Positions 3,207 through 57,365 of a DNA stretch of 64,000 bases are shown here, one piece after another. Source of the DNA: SAR202 cluster bacterium (GTDB lineage: Bacteria; Chloroflexota; Dehalococcoidia; UBA6926; VFHL01); contig VFHL01000003.1 of the NCBI GenBank assembly GCA_009392005.1, forward strand, positions 17,221 through 81,220, written 5' to 3'. Within the stretch, counting starts at the first letter, position 1, and each line of letters begins with the position of its first letter. A program made the position numbers and the translations under genes. Below the pieces are notes generated by a model that was not told the origin of the DNA, ran no database searches, and saw only the letters and a program-made list of their open reading frames with translations.

Positions 3207-3767
3207 ATGCAAATCGGATTAATATCAGATACACATATAACCGGAGCAGAGCAAAATTTACCGGAACCAATCCTTCGCGCTTTTAGCCGTGTGGACCTTA
3301 TATTGCACTGCGGAGATTTAGAATCACTTTCTGTTTTAGACGAGATAGAAAAAATCGCACCAGTGAAAGCCGTGAGAGGCCACACAGATCCATTTGAAGA
3401 TAGCGACCGGCTTCAAGACGGAACGCGCATCGTCACGATCGAAAATATTAACATCGGTATGATCCATGATTTAGAGTGGCCGAATCCAGGGATTCCATAC
3501 CGAGACAACCAGCTTGTTTTTCCAGATACAGGCCTTGAACAACTTCTTTACAAAAAGTTTGGGCAACTCGTTGATATTGTAGTTTTTGGTGATACTCACG
3601 AAGAGATGATACAACGAGAAAAAGACGTGTTATTTATCAATCCAGGAAGCCCAACGCGTCCAAGCATTAGGCGTTTAGGCCACACTTTTGGTACAGTCGT
3701 CGTCATGGATATCACTTCGGACACATGTTCTGTTGAAATAGTTGATCTGGAAAGAATAGAAGCCTAA
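3207..3767 (+). CDS. Metallophosphoesterase, YfcE/MJ0936 family
   Basis: 186-aa ORF with MQIGLISDTHI (DxH), LHCGD (GD), VFGDTHE (GNH/GDTH-type) and INPGS motifs typical of small calcineurin-like phosphoesterases. Confidence 0.8.
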   Translation: MQIGLISDTHITGAEQNLPEPILRAFSRVDLILHCGDLESLSVLDEIEKIAPVKAVRGHTDPFEDSDRLQDGTRIVTIENINIGMIHDLEWPNPGIPYRDNQLVFPDTGLEQLLYKKFGQLVDIVVFGDTHEEMIQREKDVLFINPGSPTRPSIRRLGHTFGTVVVMDITSDTCSVEIVDLERIEA

Positions 3768-3810
3768 AAATTGCGTATCTCTGGTTGAACTAATACGGAG
3801 GCGGTGAAAT

Positions 3811-4461
3811 ATGACGAACGAGAATAGCGACAGTCGTACGGTCCCTGTTGTTGTATGGTACGACTACATATGACCTTGGTGTTATATCGGCCTGGCCAGG
3901 CTCGACAAGCTCAAAGAAGATTTCACTCTGGAGATTGATTACAAAACCTTCTACCTCCGGCCCGATATCCCGCCGGAAGGACGAGTACGGGATTTTAAGG
4001 ATGGTGAAAAGGCTGGTGATCCCGTAGGTGGGCGAATGGCTGAAGCCGCTGCTGACGCAGGGGTTATTATGCGCCGCGCACCACTCACACCAAATAGCCG
4101 CTTTTCATTCGAGGCTTCAGAATACGCAAAAGATAAAGGGATTTTCGAACCGTTCCATACCCTTTGTTACAAATCATTCTGGGAGGATGGCGCTAACTTG
4201 GGCGAAATCTCGGTTCTCCAAGATATTGGGAAAGCAGTGGGATTGGACCCCGATGAATTAAAAAAAGAAATCGATCGTGGCACATATACTGCACGAGCGC
4301 AATCCCAGTACGAAGAAGCGACCAAACTTGGAGTCCAAGGAATTCCATCCTTTGTGATTGGACGGTATTTCTTTTCAGGGGCACAACCATACGAATTGTT
4401 CAAAGAAGTAGCTGAACGTGTGCTTAAGGAACAAGCAGGCCAAGTAGACGAAACAAACTGA
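3811..4461 (+). CDS. DsbA/FrnE-like thiol:disulfide oxidoreductase, candidate selenoprotein (in-frame UGA at 3871..3873 read as Sec; U-P-W-C redox motif)
   Basis: ATG at 3811 lies 9 nt after a GGAGG RBS (3797-3801). It is in the same frame as the 4036..4461 ORF-track entry, and the only stop between them is TGA 3871-3873. My translation is MTNENSDSRTVPVVVWYDYI-[TGA]-PWCYIGLARLDKLKEDFTLEIDYKTFYLRPDIPPEG...GGRMAEAAADAG... The TGA sits where DsbA/FrnE family proteins have the first Cys of CPWC. The C-terminal part (GIQGIPSFVIGRYFFSGAQPYELF) is typical DsbA-FrnE. Confidence 0.7.
3887..3905 (+). promoter_or_regulatory. Candidate bacterial SECIS-like hairpin downstream of the in-frame UGA
   Basis: UCGGCCU [GGCC] AGGC(U)CGA forms 7 bp with one bulged U and a G-containing tetraloop. 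The stem starts 16 nt after the U of UGA, and the loop G residues are at about +24/+25. Folded by eye only. Confidence 0.45.
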
Positions 4462-4651
4462 CAATCACCTGAAAAAAGACTCCGTAATATCGCCAGACCA
4501 ATTCAAGAAACAACACGCTAAACCACAGGCGTGTGGATACAGGAAGTCTTGTCAAAAGATACGTAAACGCAATGGGACTCCTCCAATTAGGGTAGATCTA
4601 GACATGTAGGCAAAAACTACCTACAATAAGGCCACAATAAATAGACATAAG

Positions 4652-4747
4652 GTCTTGCGGGAGTCGGGAAAAACCGGCTGAGAGGGCATTCACAAAGTGG
4701 CCGACCGCTGAAACCTGCTCTGGTTCACTCCAGCGAAGGGAAAGGCT
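4652..4747 (+). promoter_or_regulatory. TPP (THI-box) riboswitch aptamer
   Basis: Conserved blocks gcgggagtcgg...ccggCTGAGAgg...gACCgCTGAAACCTGcTCTGGttcacTCCAGCGaAGGGAAa match the THI element consensus (CUGAGA and ACCUGAUCUGGAUAAUGCCAGCGUAGGGAA). It lies directly upstream of a thiamine ABC importer. Confidence 0.9.
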
Positions 4748-4762
4748 CAATGAAACGGATCA

Positions 4763-4850: not shown

Positions 4851-5918
4851 ATGAATCGCACTATTCATGCATTTTTGCTAGCAACCATATTGATACTAGT
4901 CTGTGTCGCATGTCTGAATACAACACCGGAAGCAACAACTGAACCCGAACAGCTAACCATAATAACTCACGACAGTTTTGACGTCGGTGAGGATGTTATT
5001 CAAGAATTTGAGGCACAATTTAATGCAAAAATTAACATCCTCAAAGCCGGCGACGCAGGTGAAGTACTCAACAAATCGATCTTGAGTAAAGGGAATCCCC
5101 TCGGAGACGTGTTATACGGAATCGACAATACTTTCCTAACTCGCGCACTAGACGAACAAATTTTCCTGCCATACCAATCGCCTGCACTTTCAAATGTCCC
5201 GGCTCAATATCATGTTGATGCTACACACCGCGTGATGCCAATCGATTATGGATTCGTCGCGATAAATTATGACAAAAAATGGATGCAAGAACAAAATTTG
5301 ACCCCTCCCCAAAATCTACAAGAACTAGCCAGCGACAAGTGGTCTGGTAAGCTCGTCGTACAGAACCCCGCAACCTCTTCGCCTGGGCTTGCGTTCTTGC
5401 TGACAACCGTTGCACACTTCGGTGAGACAGGAACCTATACATATCTTGATTATTGGCGAGATCTGAAGGACAACCAAACACTGATAAAGAACGGCTGGAG
5501 TGATGCTTATTACGGGGATTTCACGCTGTATGGCGGTGATCGCCCTTTAGTTGTAAGTTACACGACGAGCCCAGCTGCAGAAGTGTTTTACTCAGAGGGA
5601 GTACATTCTGAACCCCCAACCGGCAATGTCTTGGGCCCCAAAACAGCTTTCCTCCAAATTGAGGGGGCGGGCATCCTCCTGGGTACAAACCACGTTGAGC
5701 TTGCGCAACATTTTATTGATTTTGCGATGGGCGTAACTTTCCAACAAGACTTTCCGACAAGAATGTGGGTTTTCCCTGTAAACCCGGAAGCAGTACTTGA
5801 TAGAACGTTCGCTGAATTTGCTGAAATCCCTTCAAACCCGGCGACGCTTGATCCACATGTCATATCAAAGAATCGCGCAAAATGGATAGATGAATGGGCT
5901 AAGATCATGTTGCGGTAA
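4851..5918 (+). CDS. thiB: Thiamine/TPP ABC transporter substrate-binding protein (TbpA/ThiB), probable lipoprotein
   Basis: 355 aa, collinear with E. coli TbpA as I recall it (DSF, DVLYGIDN, IDYGFVAINYDK, NPATSSPGLAFLL, GWSDAYY, VVSYTTSPA). N-terminal signal with Cys-containing lipobox-like LVCVAC. GAGGAG RBS. TPP riboswitch upstream. Confidence 0.9.
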   Translation: MNRTIHAFLLATILILVCVACLNTTPEATTEPEQLTIITHDSFDVGEDVIQEFEAQFNAKINILKAGDAGEVLNKSILSKGNPLGDVLYGIDNTFLTRALDEQIFLPYQSPALSNVPAQYHVDATHRVMPIDYGFVAINYDKKWMQEQNLTPPQNLQELASDKWSGKLVVQNPATSSPGLAFLLTTVAHFGETGTYTYLDYWRDLKDNQTLIKNGWSDAYYGDFTLYGGDRPLVVSYTTSPAAEVFYSEGVHSEPPTGNVLGPKTAFLQIEGAGILLGTNHVELAQHFIDFAMGVTFQQDFPTRMWVFPVNPEAVLDRTFAEFAEIPSNPATLDPHVISKNRAKWIDEWAKIMLR

Positions 5919-5932
5919 GGGACTATGTAAAA

Positions 5933-7594
5933 ATGAAACCCACCCTATCCGGCGCAGTGAAAGCTCTTCCTTTTGCTTTTTTAAGTGTTCTCTTCGCCTA
6001 TCCACTAATCATGATCTTGGTCAAAAGCCTCACACATGGCGGCAGTAATCCCATTGAACCCTTCGGTATTTTGCTGTCGGATTCCTTCTATTTACAGAGG
6101 ATCTGGTTCACGTTTTGGCAAGCGGCAGTCTCTACCATCCTCACCCTTGCTGTTGGGCTACCATCAGCTTTTGTATTTGCAAAGTATCAATTTCCTGGTA
6201 AACGCCTATTGCTCTCTTTAACCACTATCCCTTTCGTCATGCCGCCGATTGTCATGGCTCTAGGTTTCATTGCCCTAATTGGCCCATCGGGGGTATTGAA
6301 TGCATTCTTGTCATCGACCTTTGAATTAGAACGACCCCCGATCGGTATTTTGAACACCGTAGCGGTCGTTTTGATTGCTCACGTTGTATATGAATTCACC
6401 ATTGTTGTACGTATTGTCTCAACAGCTTGGGAACGGCTTGATTACCGTTTACAAGAATCTGCACGAGTCTTGGGTGCAGGTCCATGGGCTACTTTCCGCT
6501 TAGTAACGCTACCACTCTTGTTCCCATCCATTATCGCTGCCGCAACTCTCGTATTCATGTTCACGTTTACAAGCTTTGGAGTTGTTTTGATTTTGGGTGG
6601 AAGTCAAAACAGTACGATAGAAGTCACAATTTACACGTTAACAGCCCAACTATTTCAACTACCGCTCGCGGCAACCCTGGCAATTTTTCAAACCCTCATG
6701 ACGTTCCTCATCATGACATCCTATGCCTGGCTCCAAGAAACGAAAATAGTACAGATAGGATTCCAACCTCACCAAAAAGAGGAAAGGAGTAATGAGGAAA
6801 AGAGGAGGCGACTGTTCCTCGGGTCTAATATGATCCTAGTGTTGATCATACTTTCTCCAATGTTAGCGCTCATCGCAAAAACGTTCATAGATGAAAACGG
6901 GCTCAATTTTACTTACATAATGTCTATTTTTTCAAATACACAGAATTCGTTTTTCTTTGTCTCACCCTTAAAGGCAATCATGAATTCTGTAATCTTCGCG
7001 ATCGCAACTGTGACGTTATCGATACCTTTAGGATTAGCGTCAGCATATGCAATCGGCCAACGTCGAGTGTGGTGGAAAAACCCCCTTGACGGCCTATTGA
7101 TGTTGCCTCTTGGTGTATCCGCTGTAACTCTCAGTTTTGGTTTCCTCGTAACATTCAATCGCGCCCCGTTTGATCTTCGAGGAACTTGGGCCATCATTGT
7201 TTTAGCGCATGTTTTAATCGCATATCCTTTCATCTTGCGGATTTTGTTGCCAGCCCTGAGAGCAATGAATCCAGCTTTGCGAGACACCGCCCGAGTTTTA
7301 GGAGCATCACCCGCACAAGTATTCCGGAAAATCGACTTGCCAATTTTGTCAGGTGGATTGGTAATAGGCGCTTCGTTTGCCTTCGCGATTTCTCTGGGGG
7401 AATTTGGCGCATCTCTACTTTTGAATCGACCAGAGCTCACAACCATTCCCGTTGTAATTTTTCGCTTTTTCGGACAACCCGGGCAAGAAAATCTTGGACA
7501 AGCATTAGCGATGAGCACCCTGCTGATGGGTATGTGCGCCATTTCATTCTTTGTTATTGAAAGGACCCGCGGTGAAGACCGATGGACTTTTTAA
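5933..7594 (+). CDS. thiP: Thiamine ABC transporter permease (duplicated two-module ThiP type)
   Basis: 553-aa polytopic membrane protein with two ABC-permease EAA-type loops (ESARVLGAGPWATFRLVTLP and DTARVLGASPAQVFRKIDLP). Confidence 0.85.
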   Translation: MKPTLSGAVKALPFAFLSVLFAYPLIMILVKSLTHGGSNPIEPFGILLSDSFYLQRIWFTFWQAAVSTILTLAVGLPSAFVFAKYQFPGKRLLLSLTTIPFVMPPIVMALGFIALIGPSGVLNAFLSSTFELERPPIGILNTVAVVLIAHVVYEFTIVVRIVSTAWERLDYRLQESARVLGAGPWATFRLVTLPLLFPSIIAAATLVFMFTFTSFGVVLILGGSQNSTIEVTIYTLTAQLFQLPLAATLAIFQTLMTFLIMTSYAWLQETKIVQIGFQPHQKEERSNEEKRRRLFLGSNMILVLIILSPMLALIAKTFIDENGLNFTYIMSIFSNTQNSFFFVSPLKAIMNSVIFAIATVTLSIPLGLASAYAIGQRRVWWKNPLDGLLMLPLGVSAVTLSFGFLVTFNRAPFDLRGTWAIIVLAHVLIAYPFILRILLPALRAMNPALRDTARVLGASPAQVFRKIDLPILSGGLVIGASFAFAISLGEFGASLLLNRPELTTIPVVIFRFFGQPGQENLGQALAMSTLLMGMCAISFFVIERTRGEDRWTF

Positions 7595-7678
7595 GGCTAC
7601 AAGTAACATTTTGGGGGCTCTAAAATTGCTGCTCAAATCTTGCCTCTCACAAACCTCCAAAAGGAGCCAATTAAAGAA

Positions 7679-8785
7679 ATGACTCCTGATGACAGAGACC
7701 AAAATCTAGAACCTTTTCTTGAAATCACAAATATCTCAAAAAGATATGGTGATAAAACGGCGGTAGATCAAGTCAATATTCATATTCACCGTGGTGAAAT
7801 CATATCGCTACTTGGACCAAGCGGTTGTGGCAAATCCACGTTGTTAAAAATCATTGCAGGGCTCGAAGAATTCGATTCTGGAACAGTGTCTCTCACAAAC
7901 CAATCCCTGGAAGGAGTTGCCCCAGAGGATCGCAATTTCGGCTTAATGCCTCAAGATTTAGTCCTGTTCCCCCACCTAAATGTCTGGGACAACATAGCCT
8001 TTGGCTTACGAATGCAACGCCAGTCGCAAATCAATATCCAATCACGGGTTAATGATCTACTAACCCTCGTGGGATTACCGGACCAAGGTGAACGTAACGT
8101 CCAGGAGCTATCCGGCGGAGAACAACAACGTGTCGCTCTGGCACGGTCGCTAGCACCGGAACCAAAACTATTGATGCTAGATGAGCCTATGGGAGCATTA
8201 GATCGCCGATTGCGTGAAGATCTTTATTTGCATGTAAAAGCAATCCTCAAAGAAGTAGGGGTAACTGCAATCTATGTGACACACGATCATGACGAAGCTT
8301 TCGCAGTATCGGATCGAGCAGTTGTGATGCAAAACGGGAAGTTCATACAAATAGGGACACCAGAAAAGTTGTACACAACCCCTTCAAACGCATTTATTGC
8401 AAATTTCTTAGGGTTCCGGAACATCTTCCCGGCAACGATCACCTCACAACCTCACTCAAGCAACCTAAAAACACCAATCGGCATATTTGAGGTCGCCCCA
8501 AATCAAGTGCCCAGAGCATTTGAAGAAAATGAAGCGACCCTGTTAGTCCCGAACCAATCGATTACAATACAAAATGCAGACAAGCTAACTACCGCAACAA
8601 AAACAATCTCCGGAGTAATCGAATCAAAAATCTTCCAACAGGGATATTACCGTATACAGGTGAAGGTGCGCACCGAAACGCTACATCTGTCAGTACCAAT
8701 GACAACGGATTCGGTCCAATTAGCCCTTGGCAACACGCTAAATCTGGAAATTGACCCCACAAAAATAATGGTCCTGGCTAAGTAG
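7679..8785 (+). CDS. thiQ: ABC transporter ATP-binding protein of the thiamine importer, with C-terminal TOBE-like domain
   Basis: Walker A GPSGCGKST, signature LSGGEQQRV, Walker B LLMLDEP, H-loop VTHD. I prefer ATG 7679, preceded by AAGGAG, over the track's TTG 7640. It is longer than E. coli ThiQ because of a PotA/FbpC-like C-terminal domain. Confidence 0.85.
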   Translation: MTPDDRDQNLEPFLEITNISKRYGDKTAVDQVNIHIHRGEIISLLGPSGCGKSTLLKIIAGLEEFDSGTVSLTNQSLEGVAPEDRNFGLMPQDLVLFPHLNVWDNIAFGLRMQRQSQINIQSRVNDLLTLVGLPDQGERNVQELSGGEQQRVALARSLAPEPKLLMLDEPMGALDRRLREDLYLHVKAILKEVGVTAIYVTHDHDEAFAVSDRAVVMQNGKFIQIGTPEKLYTTPSNAFIANFLGFRNIFPATITSQPHSSNLKTPIGIFEVAPNQVPRAFEENEATLLVPNQSITIQNADKLTTATKTISGVIESKIFQQGYYRIQVKVRTETLHLSVPMTTDSVQLALGNTLNLEIDPTKIMVLAK

Positions 8786-17369: not shown

Positions 17370-17774
17370 ATGTCACCAACAAACTTACAAGTAATCAGCG
17401 CCGAGAAAGTCCTGTACGAGGATGACGTTGATATTGTGGTATGCCCAGGAATCGAGGGAGAACTCGGTGTTTTGCCCCAACATGCCCCGATCTTTACTTT
17501 ATTGCAAACTGGAGAAATCCGCGTAAAGAAAGGTGAACAGGAAGATAGCATTTTTGTTACCGGTGGCTTTCTTCAGATAACGCAAGAAAAAGTCGTCGTT
17601 TTGGCTGATGCAGGTGAGCAAGCGCAAGATATCGATGAGGAGCGGGCCTCTCGAGCCAAAGAAAGAGCGGAAGAACGGTTAAACCAACAGGAACAAGATA
17701 CCGACATCCCCCGTGCTGAAAATGCGTTGCACAGATCCGTTACGCGATTACGCGTAGCTGAACGCAACAAATGA
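17370..17774 (+). CDS. atpC: F0F1 ATP synthase subunit epsilon
   Basis: 134 aa with an N-terminal beta-sandwich and C-terminal helical hairpin sequence pattern. Operon position. Ends with a TGA stop. Confidence 0.92.
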   Translation: MSPTNLQVISAEKVLYEDDVDIVVCPGIEGELGVLPQHAPIFTLLQTGEIRVKKGEQEDSIFVTGGFLQITQEKVVVLADAGEQAQDIDEERASRAKERAEERLNQQEQDTDIPRAENALHRSVTRLRVAERNK

Positions 17775-26726: not shown

Positions 26727-28703
26727 ATGGCTTATTCCGATATCGGATATGTCTCTCTCGTCGTTGCGCTCGTAATGTCTATATACACAGGGATCGCTTC
26801 AATAACGGCGGTGCGTTTCTATTATGCTCCCCTACTCCTAAGTGCACGAAACGGGGTTTGGATAATAAGCTGTTTGATGCTTATTGCTTCAGGGACATTA
26901 ATCTATGGGTTCATGACTCATGACTTTGGCCTGAGGTATGTGGTACTGCATTCAAGCGTAGACATGCCGTGGTATTACATCTCATCCGCTTTGTGGGGTG
27001 GGCAAGAAGGTTCTTTGCTTTATTGGGCAACCACCTTAAGTGTCCTAGCGGGTGTCGCTACATTGAGAAACAGAAATCGGTATGGACAACTCATGCCATA
27101 CGTTATAGCCACAATCATGATTGTCATAGCATTTTTCTTAACTGTCCTTATTTTTGCAACCAATCCATTCGAGCGCTTACCGTTCTCAATGCCAGATGGA
27201 CGCGGATTGAATCCACTACTCAGAGATCCGGGCATGGTCATTCATCCGCCAATGTTACTTCTAGGGTATGTGAGTTGGACTATCCCATTCGCATTCGTTA
27301 TTGCGGCTCTGATAACAGGACGTTTGGGCACAGAATGGGTTCGTGCGATTAGGAGGTGGACGCTATTAGCTTGGTCTATCCAAAGCATTGGGTTATTGCT
27401 TGGAGCTTGGTGGGCATACCATGTCCTCGGATGGGGTGGTTATTGGGGATGGGATCCGGTTGAAAACGTAGCGTTCCTTCCCTGGATCACTGGGACTGCG
27501 AGCCTCCATTCAGTCATGGTGGTAGAACGACGCGGGAAGCTTAAAGTGTGGACCATTAGTCTCGTCATACTGTCTTTTCTTCTTGCCATTTTTGGAACAT
27601 TTGTAGTACGGTCAGGCATTCTTTCATCAGTACACTCCTTTGCAGAATCAGATATTGGACACCTATTTCTGACCTTCTTTTCCCTTGCACTTGTTGGATC
27701 ACTTGCCCTTTTACTTTTTCGTTTACCGCAAATCAAAGATGAAGAGGGGTTTGAATCACCAATTTCTCGCGAATCTGGATTCCTTTTTAACAATCTGCTT
27801 CTCATCGGCATCGGTTTCGCAACGTTTTGGGGGACAATTTATCCGATAATAACCGAAGCATTCACAGGAGACAAAATAACAGTCGGACCACCTTTCTTCC
27901 AGCAAGTCAACGGACCATTATTTTTTGTATTACTTCTACTAATGGGCGTTGGGCCATTGTTGGCCTGGAGACAAACATCAATGCGCGCTTTGGTGAAAAG
28001 CATGTCGCTACCCCTGGTATTAGGCTTCTCCGCATTAATCATGTCCCAATTAATCACACAAAAACCTTTTGTTGCACTTAGCATAGGAGCCTTAGTCTTT
28101 GTCACTGCAACAATTCTTTTAGAATACAAAAGAGGCCTGATAATAAGAAAACGCAACACAGGAGAAATTTACCCATTAGCATTAACACGTCTCGTTTCTC
28201 GTAATAAACAAAGGTACGGTGGTTATATCGTTCATATTGGAATCATATTGATTGCGATCGGAATCATTGGTTCCACTGCTTTCCAAACAAATAGGGAAGT
28301 AAATATGAAAAAAGGTGAGTCGGTCGCCATTGGACGCTACGTACTAACATACGAGGAAAGTTTTTCTAGGATAGATCCGGAAAAAGAAATCCTTGGATCA
28401 ATCTTAACAATAAATCGTGGCGGAAAGAACATTGGCACGATGGTGCCCAGCACTGAGTTCTACAATAAATTCCAAGGACAACCAAGTAGCAAAATTGCGA
28501 TCTCAACTACCCTGCTAGATGACCTTTATATTTTTCAGGCATCTCGACCAACCGATAATGACGTCACTCTTTCAATATTTGTTAACCCTCTCGTCATGTG
28601 GATCTGGATTGGTGGCACCGTATTGATTTTGGGCATCCTAATTGCTGCATGGCCAGAAAAACGAACAATGTGGACTAGTTTGACACAAACCGCGAAGATT
28701 TAA
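26727..28703 (+). CDS. ccmF: Cytochrome c-type biogenesis heme lyase subunit CcmF
   Basis: 658-aa polytopic protein with the WWD heme-handling motif WGGYWGWDPVENVAFLPWI. Confidence 0.95.
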   Translation: MAYSDIGYVSLVVALVMSIYTGIASITAVRFYYAPLLLSARNGVWIISCLMLIASGTLIYGFMTHDFGLRYVVLHSSVDMPWYYISSALWGGQEGSLLYWATTLSVLAGVATLRNRNRYGQLMPYVIATIMIVIAFFLTVLIFATNPFERLPFSMPDGRGLNPLLRDPGMVIHPPMLLLGYVSWTIPFAFVIAALITGRLGTEWVRAIRRWTLLAWSIQSIGLLLGAWWAYHVLGWGGYWGWDPVENVAFLPWITGTASLHSVMVVERRGKLKVWTISLVILSFLLAIFGTFVVRSGILSSVHSFAESDIGHLFLTFFSLALVGSLALLLFRLPQIKDEEGFESPISRESGFLFNNLLLIGIGFATFWGTIYPIITEAFTGDKITVGPPFFQQVNGPLFFVLLLLMGVGPLLAWRQTSMRALVKSMSLPLVLGFSALIMSQLITQKPFVALSIGALVFVTATILLEYKRGLIIRKRNTGEIYPLALTRLVSRNKQRYGGYIVHIGIILIAIGIIGSTAFQTNREVNMKKGESVAIGRYVLTYEESFSRIDPEKEILGSILTINRGGKNIGTMVPSTEFYNKFQGQPSSKIAISTTLLDDLYIFQASRPTDNDVTLSIFVNPLVMWIWIGGTVLILGILIAAWPEKRTMWTSLTQTAKI

Positions 28704-29610: not shown

Positions 29611-30816
29611 ATGACTCTCAAAATACACCCAAAAAACATCGCACTAACCGCTAGCGCTTTATTCTTGTTTGTTTGTGCCACTTTTGTCCTGTCCCAACAG
29701 GAAACCCACGCACAAAACACAAAGATAGATATCATCGGAAATGTGGTGAATGGTAGCGCAAATAACCTTGCAGTTATAGATATCACTGTTTCCCTCCAAG
29801 CTCTGAGGGAGAATGGTGATACTGCGATGGCAGTCACCACTAATACAGACGAGAAAGGGATGTTTTATTTCAACGGTATTCTGATGGAGCAAGGGATGTT
29901 GTATAGAGTAGCTGTGGAGTATCAAAATGCCCGCTATTTCAGTGATGGATACACAGCGTTAAACATACCTCAGGAACCACTAACCGTAGCCGTATACGAA
30001 ACCACCGAGAATGACTCTCATATAAAATTCGACCAGCAAACTATGATAGTTACAGAAATAGATGCTGAAGCTGGATTTTTAAGAATTATTGAGGATACGA
30101 CAGTTTTGAACAATGGTCAGAAGGCATATATAGGAATGCGAGATGCCAATGGGCAGATTTCGACTGTACGTATACCTCTACCACTATTTGCTTTTGATGT
30201 CTTACCAGGAATTGGGTTTGGGGCGAATGGATTCCTCGTTACGCAAGGTGGCTTGGCAGATATCAGCCCGCTCTTACCCGGTAAACGTGATCTTTTGTAC
30301 GGATACAGTATCCCATATCCCACTAACTCAGTCTCACTGAATCGCTCATACCAATATCCAATCGATGTGGTAAGAATCCTAACACCCGTAGAAGTTGAAT
30401 CTAACCCTAATGGGATGGATTTTTTGGACACCGTAAGCATTGCAGACCGCAAATATAATGCGTTTATCTCCACAAATGTGACTGCAGGTGAATCAATTGG
30501 CGTGTCATTGATCAACCTACCGAAAAGTACGGGGCAAAAAAGTCGAGGTCTGGAATCAACTTTAAAATGGTACGCTTTGGCTACAATAGCGGGAATGCTA
30601 TTCTTGTTAGCAATTCTTGCGACATACAAGCACAAAAAGCGGCAGCAAGAGTCTAGTCTGACTTTTGCAAGCTTACAAGAGGAATCAGCAAGTGAAATCA
30701 TCCAGCTGAGAGAAGCCTATCTATCTGGATCAATGAATGAACAAGAATATAACGCTCGACGCGCCGAGATAATCAACCAACTAAGAAGGAACCGCGAACA
30801 CCAGCCGAAAGAGTAA
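29611..30816 (+). CDS. Uncharacterised secreted/membrane-anchored protein: signal peptide, carboxypeptidase-regulatory-like beta-sandwich, C-terminal TM and SHOCT-like tail
   Basis: 401 aa. Signal-like N-terminus (ALTASALFLFVCATFVLS). IIGNVVNG...TTNTDEKGMFYFNGI resembles CarboxypepD_reg repeats. TM WYALATIAGMLFLLAILATY, then GSMNEQEYNARRAEIINQL. Confidence 0.6.
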   Translation: MTLKIHPKNIALTASALFLFVCATFVLSQQETHAQNTKIDIIGNVVNGSANNLAVIDITVSLQALRENGDTAMAVTTNTDEKGMFYFNGILMEQGMLYRVAVEYQNARYFSDGYTALNIPQEPLTVAVYETTENDSHIKFDQQTMIVTEIDAEAGFLRIIEDTTVLNNGQKAYIGMRDANGQISTVRIPLPLFAFDVLPGIGFGANGFLVTQGGLADISPLLPGKRDLLYGYSIPYPTNSVSLNRSYQYPIDVVRILTPVEVESNPNGMDFLDTVSIADRKYNAFISTNVTAGESIGVSLINLPKSTGQKSRGLESTLKWYALATIAGMLFLLAILATYKHKKRQQESSLTFASLQEESASEIIQLREAYLSGSMNEQEYNARRAEIINQLRRNREHQPKE

Positions 30817-33244: not shown

Positions 33245-33895
33245 TTGCCAAAACGAACTTTCATCGTCAATGGGCTTGGAATAGCTCTTCTAATAATCGC
33301 ATTGGCGATCATATACATTTCATCATTCCTCCGACAAGAGCCGGGTGGGTTCCAAGGTAATCAGTTAGACCCCCCAAGATCATCACTTGATTTCGAATTA
33401 ACCAATCAAAACGGTATTAAAACAAGATGGTCTGATTATCGCGGGAAGTATCTTGTTTTGACCTTCCTCTACACTAATTGCCGCGAACTTTGCCCGGTAA
33501 TCGCAAATAAAATCCAACAGACCCAAACAGCCATAAGTGAAAAAACGGATCAAGTACGCTTTGTAGCAATATCTCTTGATCCAGAAAGAGATACCCCTGA
33601 TTCAATAAGAGAATTTATGATGAGATGGAACTTGAATTCTTGGGATTACCTTGTCGGATCCGAAGATCTTCTCGAGCCATTATGGCAGCACTATTGGGTT
33701 GGAACGTTGTTTCAAGAATCAATCGAGAATACTGCTACCAGTAATAGAGCGTATGGGGAATATGCAATAAATCATGCCTCACCAGTGCACTTGATTGATC
33801 AGAATGGATACGCCCATGTTGCTTACAGTAGTCTTTTCGAATCCCATGAACTCACAAATGACATTTTGTATTTGGTCAAAATAAACGAACGATGA
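33245..33895 (+). CDS. SCO1/SenC family copper chaperone / thioredoxin-fold protein
   Basis: 216 aa. N-terminal TM, CxxxC motif YTNCRELCPV, downstream conserved His (HASPVHLID), FVAISLDPERDTP. Confidence 0.85.
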   Translation: MPKRTFIVNGLGIALLIIALAIIYISSFLRQEPGGFQGNQLDPPRSSLDFELTNQNGIKTRWSDYRGKYLVLTFLYTNCRELCPVIANKIQQTQTAISEKTDQVRFVAISLDPERDTPDSIREFMMRWNLNSWDYLVGSEDLLEPLWQHYWVGTLFQESIENTATSNRAYGEYAINHASPVHLIDQNGYAHVAYSSLFESHELTNDILYLVKINER

Positions 33896-56282: not shown

Positions 56283-57365
56283 TCAGTCAAATTTACTGAT
56301 ACGATCGACTTCAGATTGATCTAGCCTTTTTATCACTGCAACAACCAAAGCAATCGCATTATCAAAATCACTGCGGTGAATCACGCCGTTGTGGCTATGA
56401 AGATATCGAGTTGGGACAGAAATATTAATAGCAGGTATACCGCTACGTGATCTTTGCATCTGTGCTCCATCTTCGCCATAACCACTAAGGATTTCGTATT
56501 GAACTGGTATAGATTCCTCTTTCGCTACCTCGACAATAAAGTCACGAAGTTTTAGATTCGGTAACATTGATGCATCATGAAGAAAAATACCGGGACCATC
56601 ACCTAATTTTTCTTGTGCTTCGTCCTGGGTAATACCTGGGTAATCTGCTGCCACACCTGACTCAAGATTAATCCCGATATCAGGAGATACAAGAGTAGAA
56701 CTTGTTTGCGCACCCCTTAGGCCAACCTCCTCTTGCACGGTGGCAACACCATAAAGTGCATTGCGTAACGTTGTCTCCTTCAATGAACGAAATATCTCAA
56801 TCATTGCAGCAACGCCAATACGGTCATCCCAGGCCTTGCCCAAATACAAGGGGCTGTCATTCAAGACTTGGAATTTGCTATCAGGAGCTATTGGATCCCC
56901 TGGTTGAATTCCAAGGCGCTGTTCAGCATCTTCTTTGTCTGTCGCTCCAACATCAATAAACATCTCTTCGCGTTTAAAGATCTTGCCTCGTGCATCAGCT
57001 GGAATTACGTGTGGCGTTTTGATACCAGTCAGCCCGTGCACGTGTCCATTCTTTGTGGCAATAACCCACCGTTGATTTATTAGGCTTTGATCCAACCAGC
57101 CACCTAATGTTTGAAATTTCACATACCCATCTAAAGTAATGTATTTAACCATCAGGCCGACTTCATCCATATGGCCCGCCAACATGATTTTTGGCACCCC
57201 ATCCAGTTGACTCTGCCTGGCAACCACAGAACCCAGTCCATCTGTCTCAACTGAATGCGCCAATGGTACAATCTCTCTTCGGAAAATTTCTCTCACTGGA
57301 GCTTCAAATCCTGTAGGCGCGTAAGCATTACTTAGCTCTTCTAATAACCTTTGCACTCTCGCCAT
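56283..57365 (-). CDS. M42 family metallopeptidase (glutamyl aminopeptidase / FrvX / CelM-like)
   Basis: 360 aa. LSNAYAPTGFE, MLAGHMDEVGLMV, AWDDRIG, VQEEVGLRGA, PTRYLHS motifs characteristic of M42. Confidence 0.88.
   Translation of the reverse strand: MARVQRLLEELSNAYAPTGFEAPVREIFRREIVPLAHSVETDGLGSVVARQSQLDGVPKIMLAGHMDEVGLMVKYITLDGYVKFQTLGGWLDQSLINQRWVIATKNGHVHGLTGIKTPHVIPADARGKIFKREEMFIDVGATDKEDAEQRLGIQPGDPIAPDSKFQVLNDSPLYLGKAWDDRIGVAAMIEIFRSLKETTLRNALYGVATVQEEVGLRGAQTSSTLVSPDIGINLESGVAADYPGITQDEAQEKLGDGPGIFLHDASMLPNLKLRDFIVEVAKEESIPVQYEILSGYGEDGAQMQRSRSGIPAINISVPTRYLHSHNGVIHRSDFDNAIALVVAVIKRLDQSEVDRISKFD

Follow-up and report, generated by a model that had tools for sequence, protein, structure and literature searches.

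At positions 3811-4461 of the plus strand, the window (the whole 64-kb stretch of DNA that was analysed) contains a reading frame of 217 codons, in which codon 21 is the sole internal stop and the terminal stop is TGA. The translation around codon 21 reads VVVWYDYI-*-PWCYIGLARLDKL. The ATG at 3811 is the first possible start, because an in-frame TGA at 3805-3807 shuts the frame upstream. The elements of the gene are the following:

3811..4461, plus strand: coding sequence of a FrnE/DsbA-family oxidoreductase of 216 aa with a predicted selenocysteine (Sec) at residue 21, according to translation (the terminal TGA is included in the range)
3797..3801, plus strand: GGAGG resembling a Shine-Dalgarno box, separated from the start codon by 9 nt, read from the sequence
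3811..3813, plus strand: ATG start codon, the first start past the in-frame stop at 3805-3807
3871..3873, plus strand: in-frame TGA, putative selenocysteine U21 and residue 1 of a U-P-W-C redox motif; TGA in 88/88 motif-carrying loci, in the Cys column of homologues
3880..3882, plus strand: TGT, Cys24, the resolving residue of UxxC; all loci found have 'PWC' after the TGA
4345..4347, plus strand: CCA, Pro179 in the loop G-I-P-S-F; the column is invariant in two alignments (A1 and A3) and is aligned to G-V-P-F-F of FrnE
4459..4461, plus strand: terminal TGA, the true stop of the same gene; homologues terminate no more than a few residues away

The ATG with its GGAGG ribosome binding site, the single in-frame TGA and an ORF fragment of 141 aa (4036..4461) had been described in the initial annotation, and all of them can be read in the sequence; the fragment is the only ORF listed for this gene in the window. 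The accompanying statement that standard annotation hides the gene was also correct. The public database call for the window gene comprises 191 aa and begins with 'MGLARLD' at an ATC codon (3886) just past the TGA, and the calls for nearly all orthologues are truncated as well. Two of these orthologues, 181-190 aa in length, were named 'DsbA family protein' by NCBI.

The gene stands alone. It is preceded, in this order, by two acyl-CoA dehydrogenase genes on the minus strand and a gene for a YfcE-family phosphodiesterase (3207-3767), and is followed by a TPP riboswitch (4647-4758), a thiamine-type ABC transporter (4851-8785) and the ATP synthase operon. No notable promoter or terminator adjoins it. 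Since its orthologues sit in differing contexts, no operon logic is apparent. The riboswitch on the plus strand corresponds to Rfam RF00059 (62 bits, E=9e-10) and has a promoter-like site at 4599-4627, and the three transporter ORFs encode a substrate-binding protein (4851-5918, TIGR01254), a fused double permease (5933-7594) and an ATPase (7640-8785).

Some further observations concern the rest of the window. A gene for an M42 peptidase (56283-57365, minus strand) is 62-66% identical to M42 genes located beside orthologues in the closest MAGs, in line with the window being of Dehalococcoidia origin. In eight loci (L002, L004, L010, L011, L016, L019, L021 and L022) the M42 gene lies 1.5-3 kb downstream of the orthologue, whereas in the window the distance is 52 kb, and this suggests that the region is rearranged relative to the relatives. 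The M42 gene of the window is adjacent to a NAD synthase gene, which is also found near the orthologue in L001. In the cytochrome c maturation cluster (CcmF at 26727-28703, SCO1/SenC at 33245-33895), an ORF of 401 aa (29611-30816, plus strand) has no Pfam match at E<=1e-8.

The redox motif and its TGA in related sequences

If U is read as C, the 216-aa product matches the Pfam DSBA family (PF01323) with E=3e-26 and a score of 92.8 bits at a gathering cut-off of 25.6, residues 13-199 corresponding to positions 2-188 of the 191 profile positions. Thus, the homology runs across the TGA. The initial annotation had placed this codon on the N-terminal Cys of a CPWC motif and had proposed to verify this by alignment. 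Indeed, the column is occupied by Cys (C-P-W-C) in 18/18 full-length Cys homologues and also in FrnE of Deinococcus radiodurans, a cytoplasmic disulfide oxidoreductase.

FrnE (5CNW, 5COH and 5CP1; a C239S mutant has also been deposited) is the closest solved structure by sequence (5CNW, E=8e-19, residues 6-207), with an identity of about 30%. Its 'CPWCYIG' aligns on 'U-PWCYIG' of the window protein, and the two proteins have the x-P-W-C-Y-I-G motif and the G-[IV]-P loop in common. They differ in two respects. FrnE has Cys where the window protein would have Sec, and it is extended at the C-terminus by a tail containing another Cys pair (CX4C), while the window protein ends at residue 216 (...KEQAGQVDETN) without any Cys in this part. 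Such a C-terminal Cys pair was found only in the more distant homologues P0074, P0075, P0078 and P0081. The N-terminus, MTNENSDSRTVPVVVW, leads straight into strand 1 and shows no hydrophobic signal-like stretch by eye; the product appears to be cytoplasmic.

The only close Cys form is P0002, a protein of 219 aa from a groundwater metagenome (L088 5001-5660 and L089 3756-4415), which is 63% identical to the window protein over 97% of its length, shares VWYDYI-x-PWCY with it and has TGT (Cys) in place of TGA. The fold was modelled on this homologue as a stand-in for the window protein. The AlphaFold model has a mean pLDDT of 93.6 and contains a strand at residues 14-20, the CPWC motif at residues 24-27 and a helix at residues 25-40. 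The modelled motif is thus at the N-terminus of helix 1, which is the canonical active site of the thioredoxin fold, and Pro179 of the window protein would, judging from the family, be the cis-proline of thioredoxin-fold and DsbA proteins. The top Foldseek matches of the model are the FrnE entries with a TM score of about 0.8, followed by SCO1869.

Periplasmic DsbA of the E. coli type and the HCCA isomerase/kappa-class GST proteins have the same superfamily fold, namely a thioredoxin domain with a helical insertion, and gave weaker Foldseek matches to the model (TM 0.5-0.7; identity 12-20%). The motif of periplasmic DsbA is C-P-H-C as opposed to U-P-W-C in the window protein, and HCCA isomerase and kappa-class GST have no dithiol motif and use glutathione. 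On the grounds of motif, identity and the lack of a signal peptide visible by eye, these assignments were rejected. The Rcas_1661 (seleno)lipoprotein family was also discarded, because the NCBIfam match was weak, partial and below the cut-off. No NCBIfam model names the Sec-containing DsbA-like family or would rescue the truncated calls.

For the DNA level, one genome per GTDB species was scanned, which yielded 392 relatives, and the best 80 of these 392 were kept. They are all distinct species representatives among Dehalococcoidia/Chloroflexota MAGs, of which one bears the label SAR202-VII-2 and several originate from sponges and the deep ocean. Their proteins are 42-66% identical to the window product, and the GC content of the loci ranges from 40 to 68% (45.5% in the window). 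The codon before P-W-C is TGA in 88/88 motif-carrying loci, a set made up of 86 loci that were fetched, L090 and the window itself. This count includes L013 and L090, two Sec-form loci which were missed by the motif pattern (86/86 including the window) and then added. The 20 codons upstream of the TGA are kept as protein in the orthologues (VWYDY[IV]) with synonymous variation, and the three codons directly ahead of it differ almost only synonymously (GAC/GAT, TAC/TAT, ATT/ATC/ATA).

The protein search revealed 83 relatives, 58 of them with an identity of at least 47%. Among these 58, only two calls have full length: P0002, which is their sole Cys form, and P0003, in which the motif reads 'W-P-W-C'. 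The remaining 56 are N-truncated calls with varied starts just past the motif.

The hairpin downstream of the UGA

The initial annotation had also pointed to a hairpin just downstream of the TGA as a possible SECIS. The hairpin found by us is located as follows:

3887..3905, plus strand: candidate bacterial SECIS-type hairpin with the apical loop GGCC (3894-3897), 20 nt after the UGA

The predicted fold, UCGGCCU[GGCC]AGGC(U)CGA, has 7 bp (U3887-A3905, C3888-G3904, G3889-C3903, G3890-C3901, C3891-G3900, C3892-G3899 and U3893-A3898) and one bulge (U3902), and its minimum free energy (MFE) amounts to -7.9 kcal/mol if 27 nt are folded and to -10.3 kcal/mol if the folded segment is extended. The published bSECIS model specifies a loop of 3-9 nt with a G in loop position 1 or 2, an upper stem of 4-16 bp, a spacing of 16-37 nt and an MFE <= -7.5 kcal/mol (PMC13188914, Fig. 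2). The hairpin of the window lies within all four published constraints, and the same applies to 73 of 79 distinct orthologue sequences; in the MFE fold of the other six, no G is present in the first two loop positions. A different hairpin at 3868-3887, which contains the UGA and appeared when 3865-3935 was folded, was dismissed as a chance structure, since orthologues such as ACAUCUGACCCUGGUGCUAC cannot form it (by eye).

Two general approaches gave negative results. The 71-nt stretch 3865-3935 is not unusually stable when compared to dinucleotide shuffles (z=+0.61), and RNAalifold detected no consensus structure in an ungapped alignment of 72 sequences (A2). After the latter result, a helix set by hand (columns 16-22/30-36 of A2) was tested by pair counts, slide controls and synonymous recoding. 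Standard pairs are present in 84% of the cells of this helix. The covariation score is 0.151 compared to 0.059 in shuffled alignments (reached by 0/500) and to at most 0.100 with the partner slid, the significance in the shuffle controls being overstated because the sequences are related. An example of compensatory changes is pair 21-31, which is C-G in 43, G-C in 7, A-U in 5 and U-A in 5 sequences and joins the third base of a Gly codon to the first base of a Val/Ile/Leu codon. Relative to its synonymous recodings, the hairpin of the window scores z=-2.9, with 0.7% of the recodings equally stable, and the mean z over the 72 sequences is -3.0. Two of the codons in the hairpin, CTG (Leu) and AGG (Arg), are the least used for their amino acids in the genes of the window. 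In the majority register, the window hairpin has a C-C mismatch and needs the bulged U.

Not all orthologues use the same register. In a subgroup with the sequence …CTG GCC AGG TTG GAC CAG… (L001, L009, L011, L014, L015, L019 and L021) the majority hairpin is absent, and a stem-loop with a GGU loop is found approximately 5 nt further 3', 25 nt after the UGA. This suggests that the SECIS register moved within one gene family.

The close Cys form in L088, the sole control of this kind, has lost the hairpin: the region adopts a different fold of -5.8 kcal/mol. The degradation is due to the changes CTG>ATG and GAC CAG>GAG CGG. The downstream sequence of L088 and L089 resembles that of the L001-type genes with the hairpin broken. 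From these sequences, P0002 looks like a Sec-to-Cys reversion, an event described as rare outside FdhA and SelD (2026 review, PMC13188914).

Decoding of the UGA codon

Taken together, these comparisons suggest, with a probability of about 0.9, that the TGA at 3871-3873 is a genuine Sec codon in a 216-aa gene of the FrnE-type DsbA family with the motif U21-P-W-C24. We propose that a ribosome arriving at this UGA would encounter the hairpin 3887-3905, whose apical loop begins with GG 20 nt downstream and may act as a bacterial SECIS. The latter would recruit SelB-GTP-Sec-tRNA(Sec), and Sec would be inserted with no termination. The protein could then alternate between a U21-C24 selenenylsulfide and its selenol/thiol form and, as far as the direction of catalysis and the substrates can be inferred from its Cys relative FrnE, may serve as a disulfide reductase or isomerase. 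Sec at this position would provide a stronger nucleophile, resistant to irreversible over-oxidation.

Genes for the decoding machinery were not detected at the loci analysed. The 64-kb window contains no tRNA-Sec according to ARAGORN and Rfam, and Pfam/NCBIfam scans of 29 window ORFs revealed no SelA, SelB or SelD. Similarly, ARAGORN found no tRNA-Sec in 60 orthologue loci, and SelA, SelB and SelD are absent from the six ORFs of L079. At the level of the lineage, the top ten of BSepDB (2026) include two MAGs of Dehalococcoidia, which have 49 and 46 selenoprotein genes, and all species of this database have the Sec pathway (PMC13326102). One of the two comes from a MAG series that also supplied many of the loci analysed here.

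Other selenoprotein genes were also looked for. Within the window, none of the other TGA-interrupted ORFs in redox-like contexts made a convincing second case. In three orthologue loci, an ORF of approximately 93 aa with an in-frame TGA is present approximately 2 kb downstream of the FrnE-type gene (L079 5390-5680, L087 2750-3040 and L075 at about 5329, all on the plus strand). The context of its TGA is 'YL(A/S)(T/A)IG-U-GGHAKV', and the ORF aligns over its full length to NCBIfam NF041239, 'CC/Se motif family (seleno)protein', with E=1.5e-8 and 34.6 bits, slightly below the cut-off of 40. It is probably a second selenoprotein gene in these MAGs, and as such supports Sec decoding in the lineage independently. 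When all loci were scanned with looser criteria, conservation in other frames between close relatives obscured the results, and the 'IG-U-GGHAKV' candidate alone stood out.

The UGA could alternatively be recoded to an amino acid other than Sec. It could be read as Cys by a tRNA(Sec)-like tRNA(Cys) on the SelB/SECIS path, or as Trp or Gly as a result of lineage-wide or context-dependent reassignment. The inserted amino acid is not readable from the sequence alone, some bacteria are known to have tRNA(Sec)-like tRNAs that carry Cys, and the public call P0003 translated the codon as W. However, this call originates from a 793-nt ENA contig (L090 104-739) whose DNA has a TGA at this site, together with a good SECIS hairpin of -10.8 kcal/mol, and its 'W' is therefore an artefact of gene calling with code 4. 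Further, genome-wide reassignment is not compatible with the stop usage. In line with the initial statement that TGA is an ordinary stop in this DNA, it ends 17 of 73 non-overlapping window ORFs (TAA 35, TAG 21), including the gene itself and those terminating at 17774 and 19982, the last one encoding 6-phosphogluconate dehydrogenase according to Pfam. The affected position is that of a redox Cys, which is a documented site of replacement by Sec in the DsbA-like family, and the lineage is documented as rich in selenoproteins. We consider recoding to another amino acid improbable.

Even less probable is true termination at 3871-3873 with re-initiation further downstream, giving a functional N-truncated product, whose length would be 191 aa with the start at ATC 3886 and 141 aa with the start at ATG 4036. 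It would agree with the truncated database calls for nearly all orthologues, but the called starts are inconsistent among them (MGLARLD, MARLDQL, MDQLEQ, LDQLEQEF, MEQDF), and the call in the window requires an ATC start. Moreover, a truncated product would be devoid of strand 1 and of the whole UxxC/CxxC motif, by which the active site of the fold is defined, and conservation at the protein level covers both the 20 codons ahead of the TGA and the PWC behind it.

Finally, a pseudogene or sequencing error, in which a Cys-type DsbA/FrnE gene would have acquired a nonsense mutation by chance or a wrongly called base, is very nearly excluded. TGA is one base from TGC/TGT and gene callers treat the locus as truncated, but the identical TGA recurs in each of the 88 loci, which stem from independent assemblies and include 80 different species representatives, the frame on either side is under purifying selection, and a conserved structured element lies just downstream. 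Such a pattern across species and GC contents cannot be explained by nonsense mutation or assembly error.

Relation to known selenoproteins and implications

Insertion of Sec at this site would place the gene in a family which is already known. A 'DsbA-like protein' (COG2761, FrnE group, UxxC) was described in 2005 as a new selenoprotein family with nine sequences from the Sargasso Sea (PMC1088965), in agreement with the statement in the initial annotation that such proteins had appeared in surveys of marine metagenomes. Later it was found in Deltaproteobacteria and Clostridia (PMC1794560) and in 41 organisms in a survey from 2016 (PMC5029168), and it is listed in a 2026 review as 'DsbA-like protein form 1, PF01323, UxxC' (PMC13188914). 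Its range in the literature includes Asgard archaea. The window protein has in common with this family the Pfam domain, a UxxC motif with the putative Sec in the N-terminal position and the marine origin, and in both cases a SECIS hairpin with a G in the apical loop follows soon after the UGA. The likeness of the window clade to the family representatives AACY01178397 and NIP15863.1 refers to the description of domain and motif.

Because the family has been catalogued since 2005 and the lineage is rich in selenoproteins, we regard the locus as a mis-annotated new member of a known selenoprotein family. Knowledge of selenoprotein families and of recoding is unchanged by this gene. The practical consequence concerns annotation. 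The gene and many of its Dehalococcoidia orthologues are held publicly as 'DsbA family proteins' of 180-190 aa without the active site. Corrected calls would add one more selenoprotein to the proteomes of an abundant marine lineage and improve estimates of its selenium dependence. In addition, the 79 distinct UGA-plus-hairpin sequences with their compensatory changes could be useful for testing models of the bacterial SECIS.

All close relatives found have TGA, with the exception of the one Cys form from groundwater, and the two SECIS registers are represented by loops of the GGCC/UGGAAC type at +19-21 nt and by the GGU loop at +25 nt. Based on this, it is tempting to speculate that an FrnE-like enzyme has become fixed in selenoprotein form in virtually the whole marine Dehalococcoidia clade, SAR202-labelled MAGs included, with the SECIS placed in the codons for the first turn of helix 1 and in at least two registers, a generalization which we put forward only tentatively and consider rather unlikely to hold in full. 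If it is true and the clade is undescribed in this respect, an abundant dark-ocean group would have a lineage-wide, selenium-dependent core redox enzyme, and its genes would offer a natural series for the co-evolution of a SECIS element and a protein helix.
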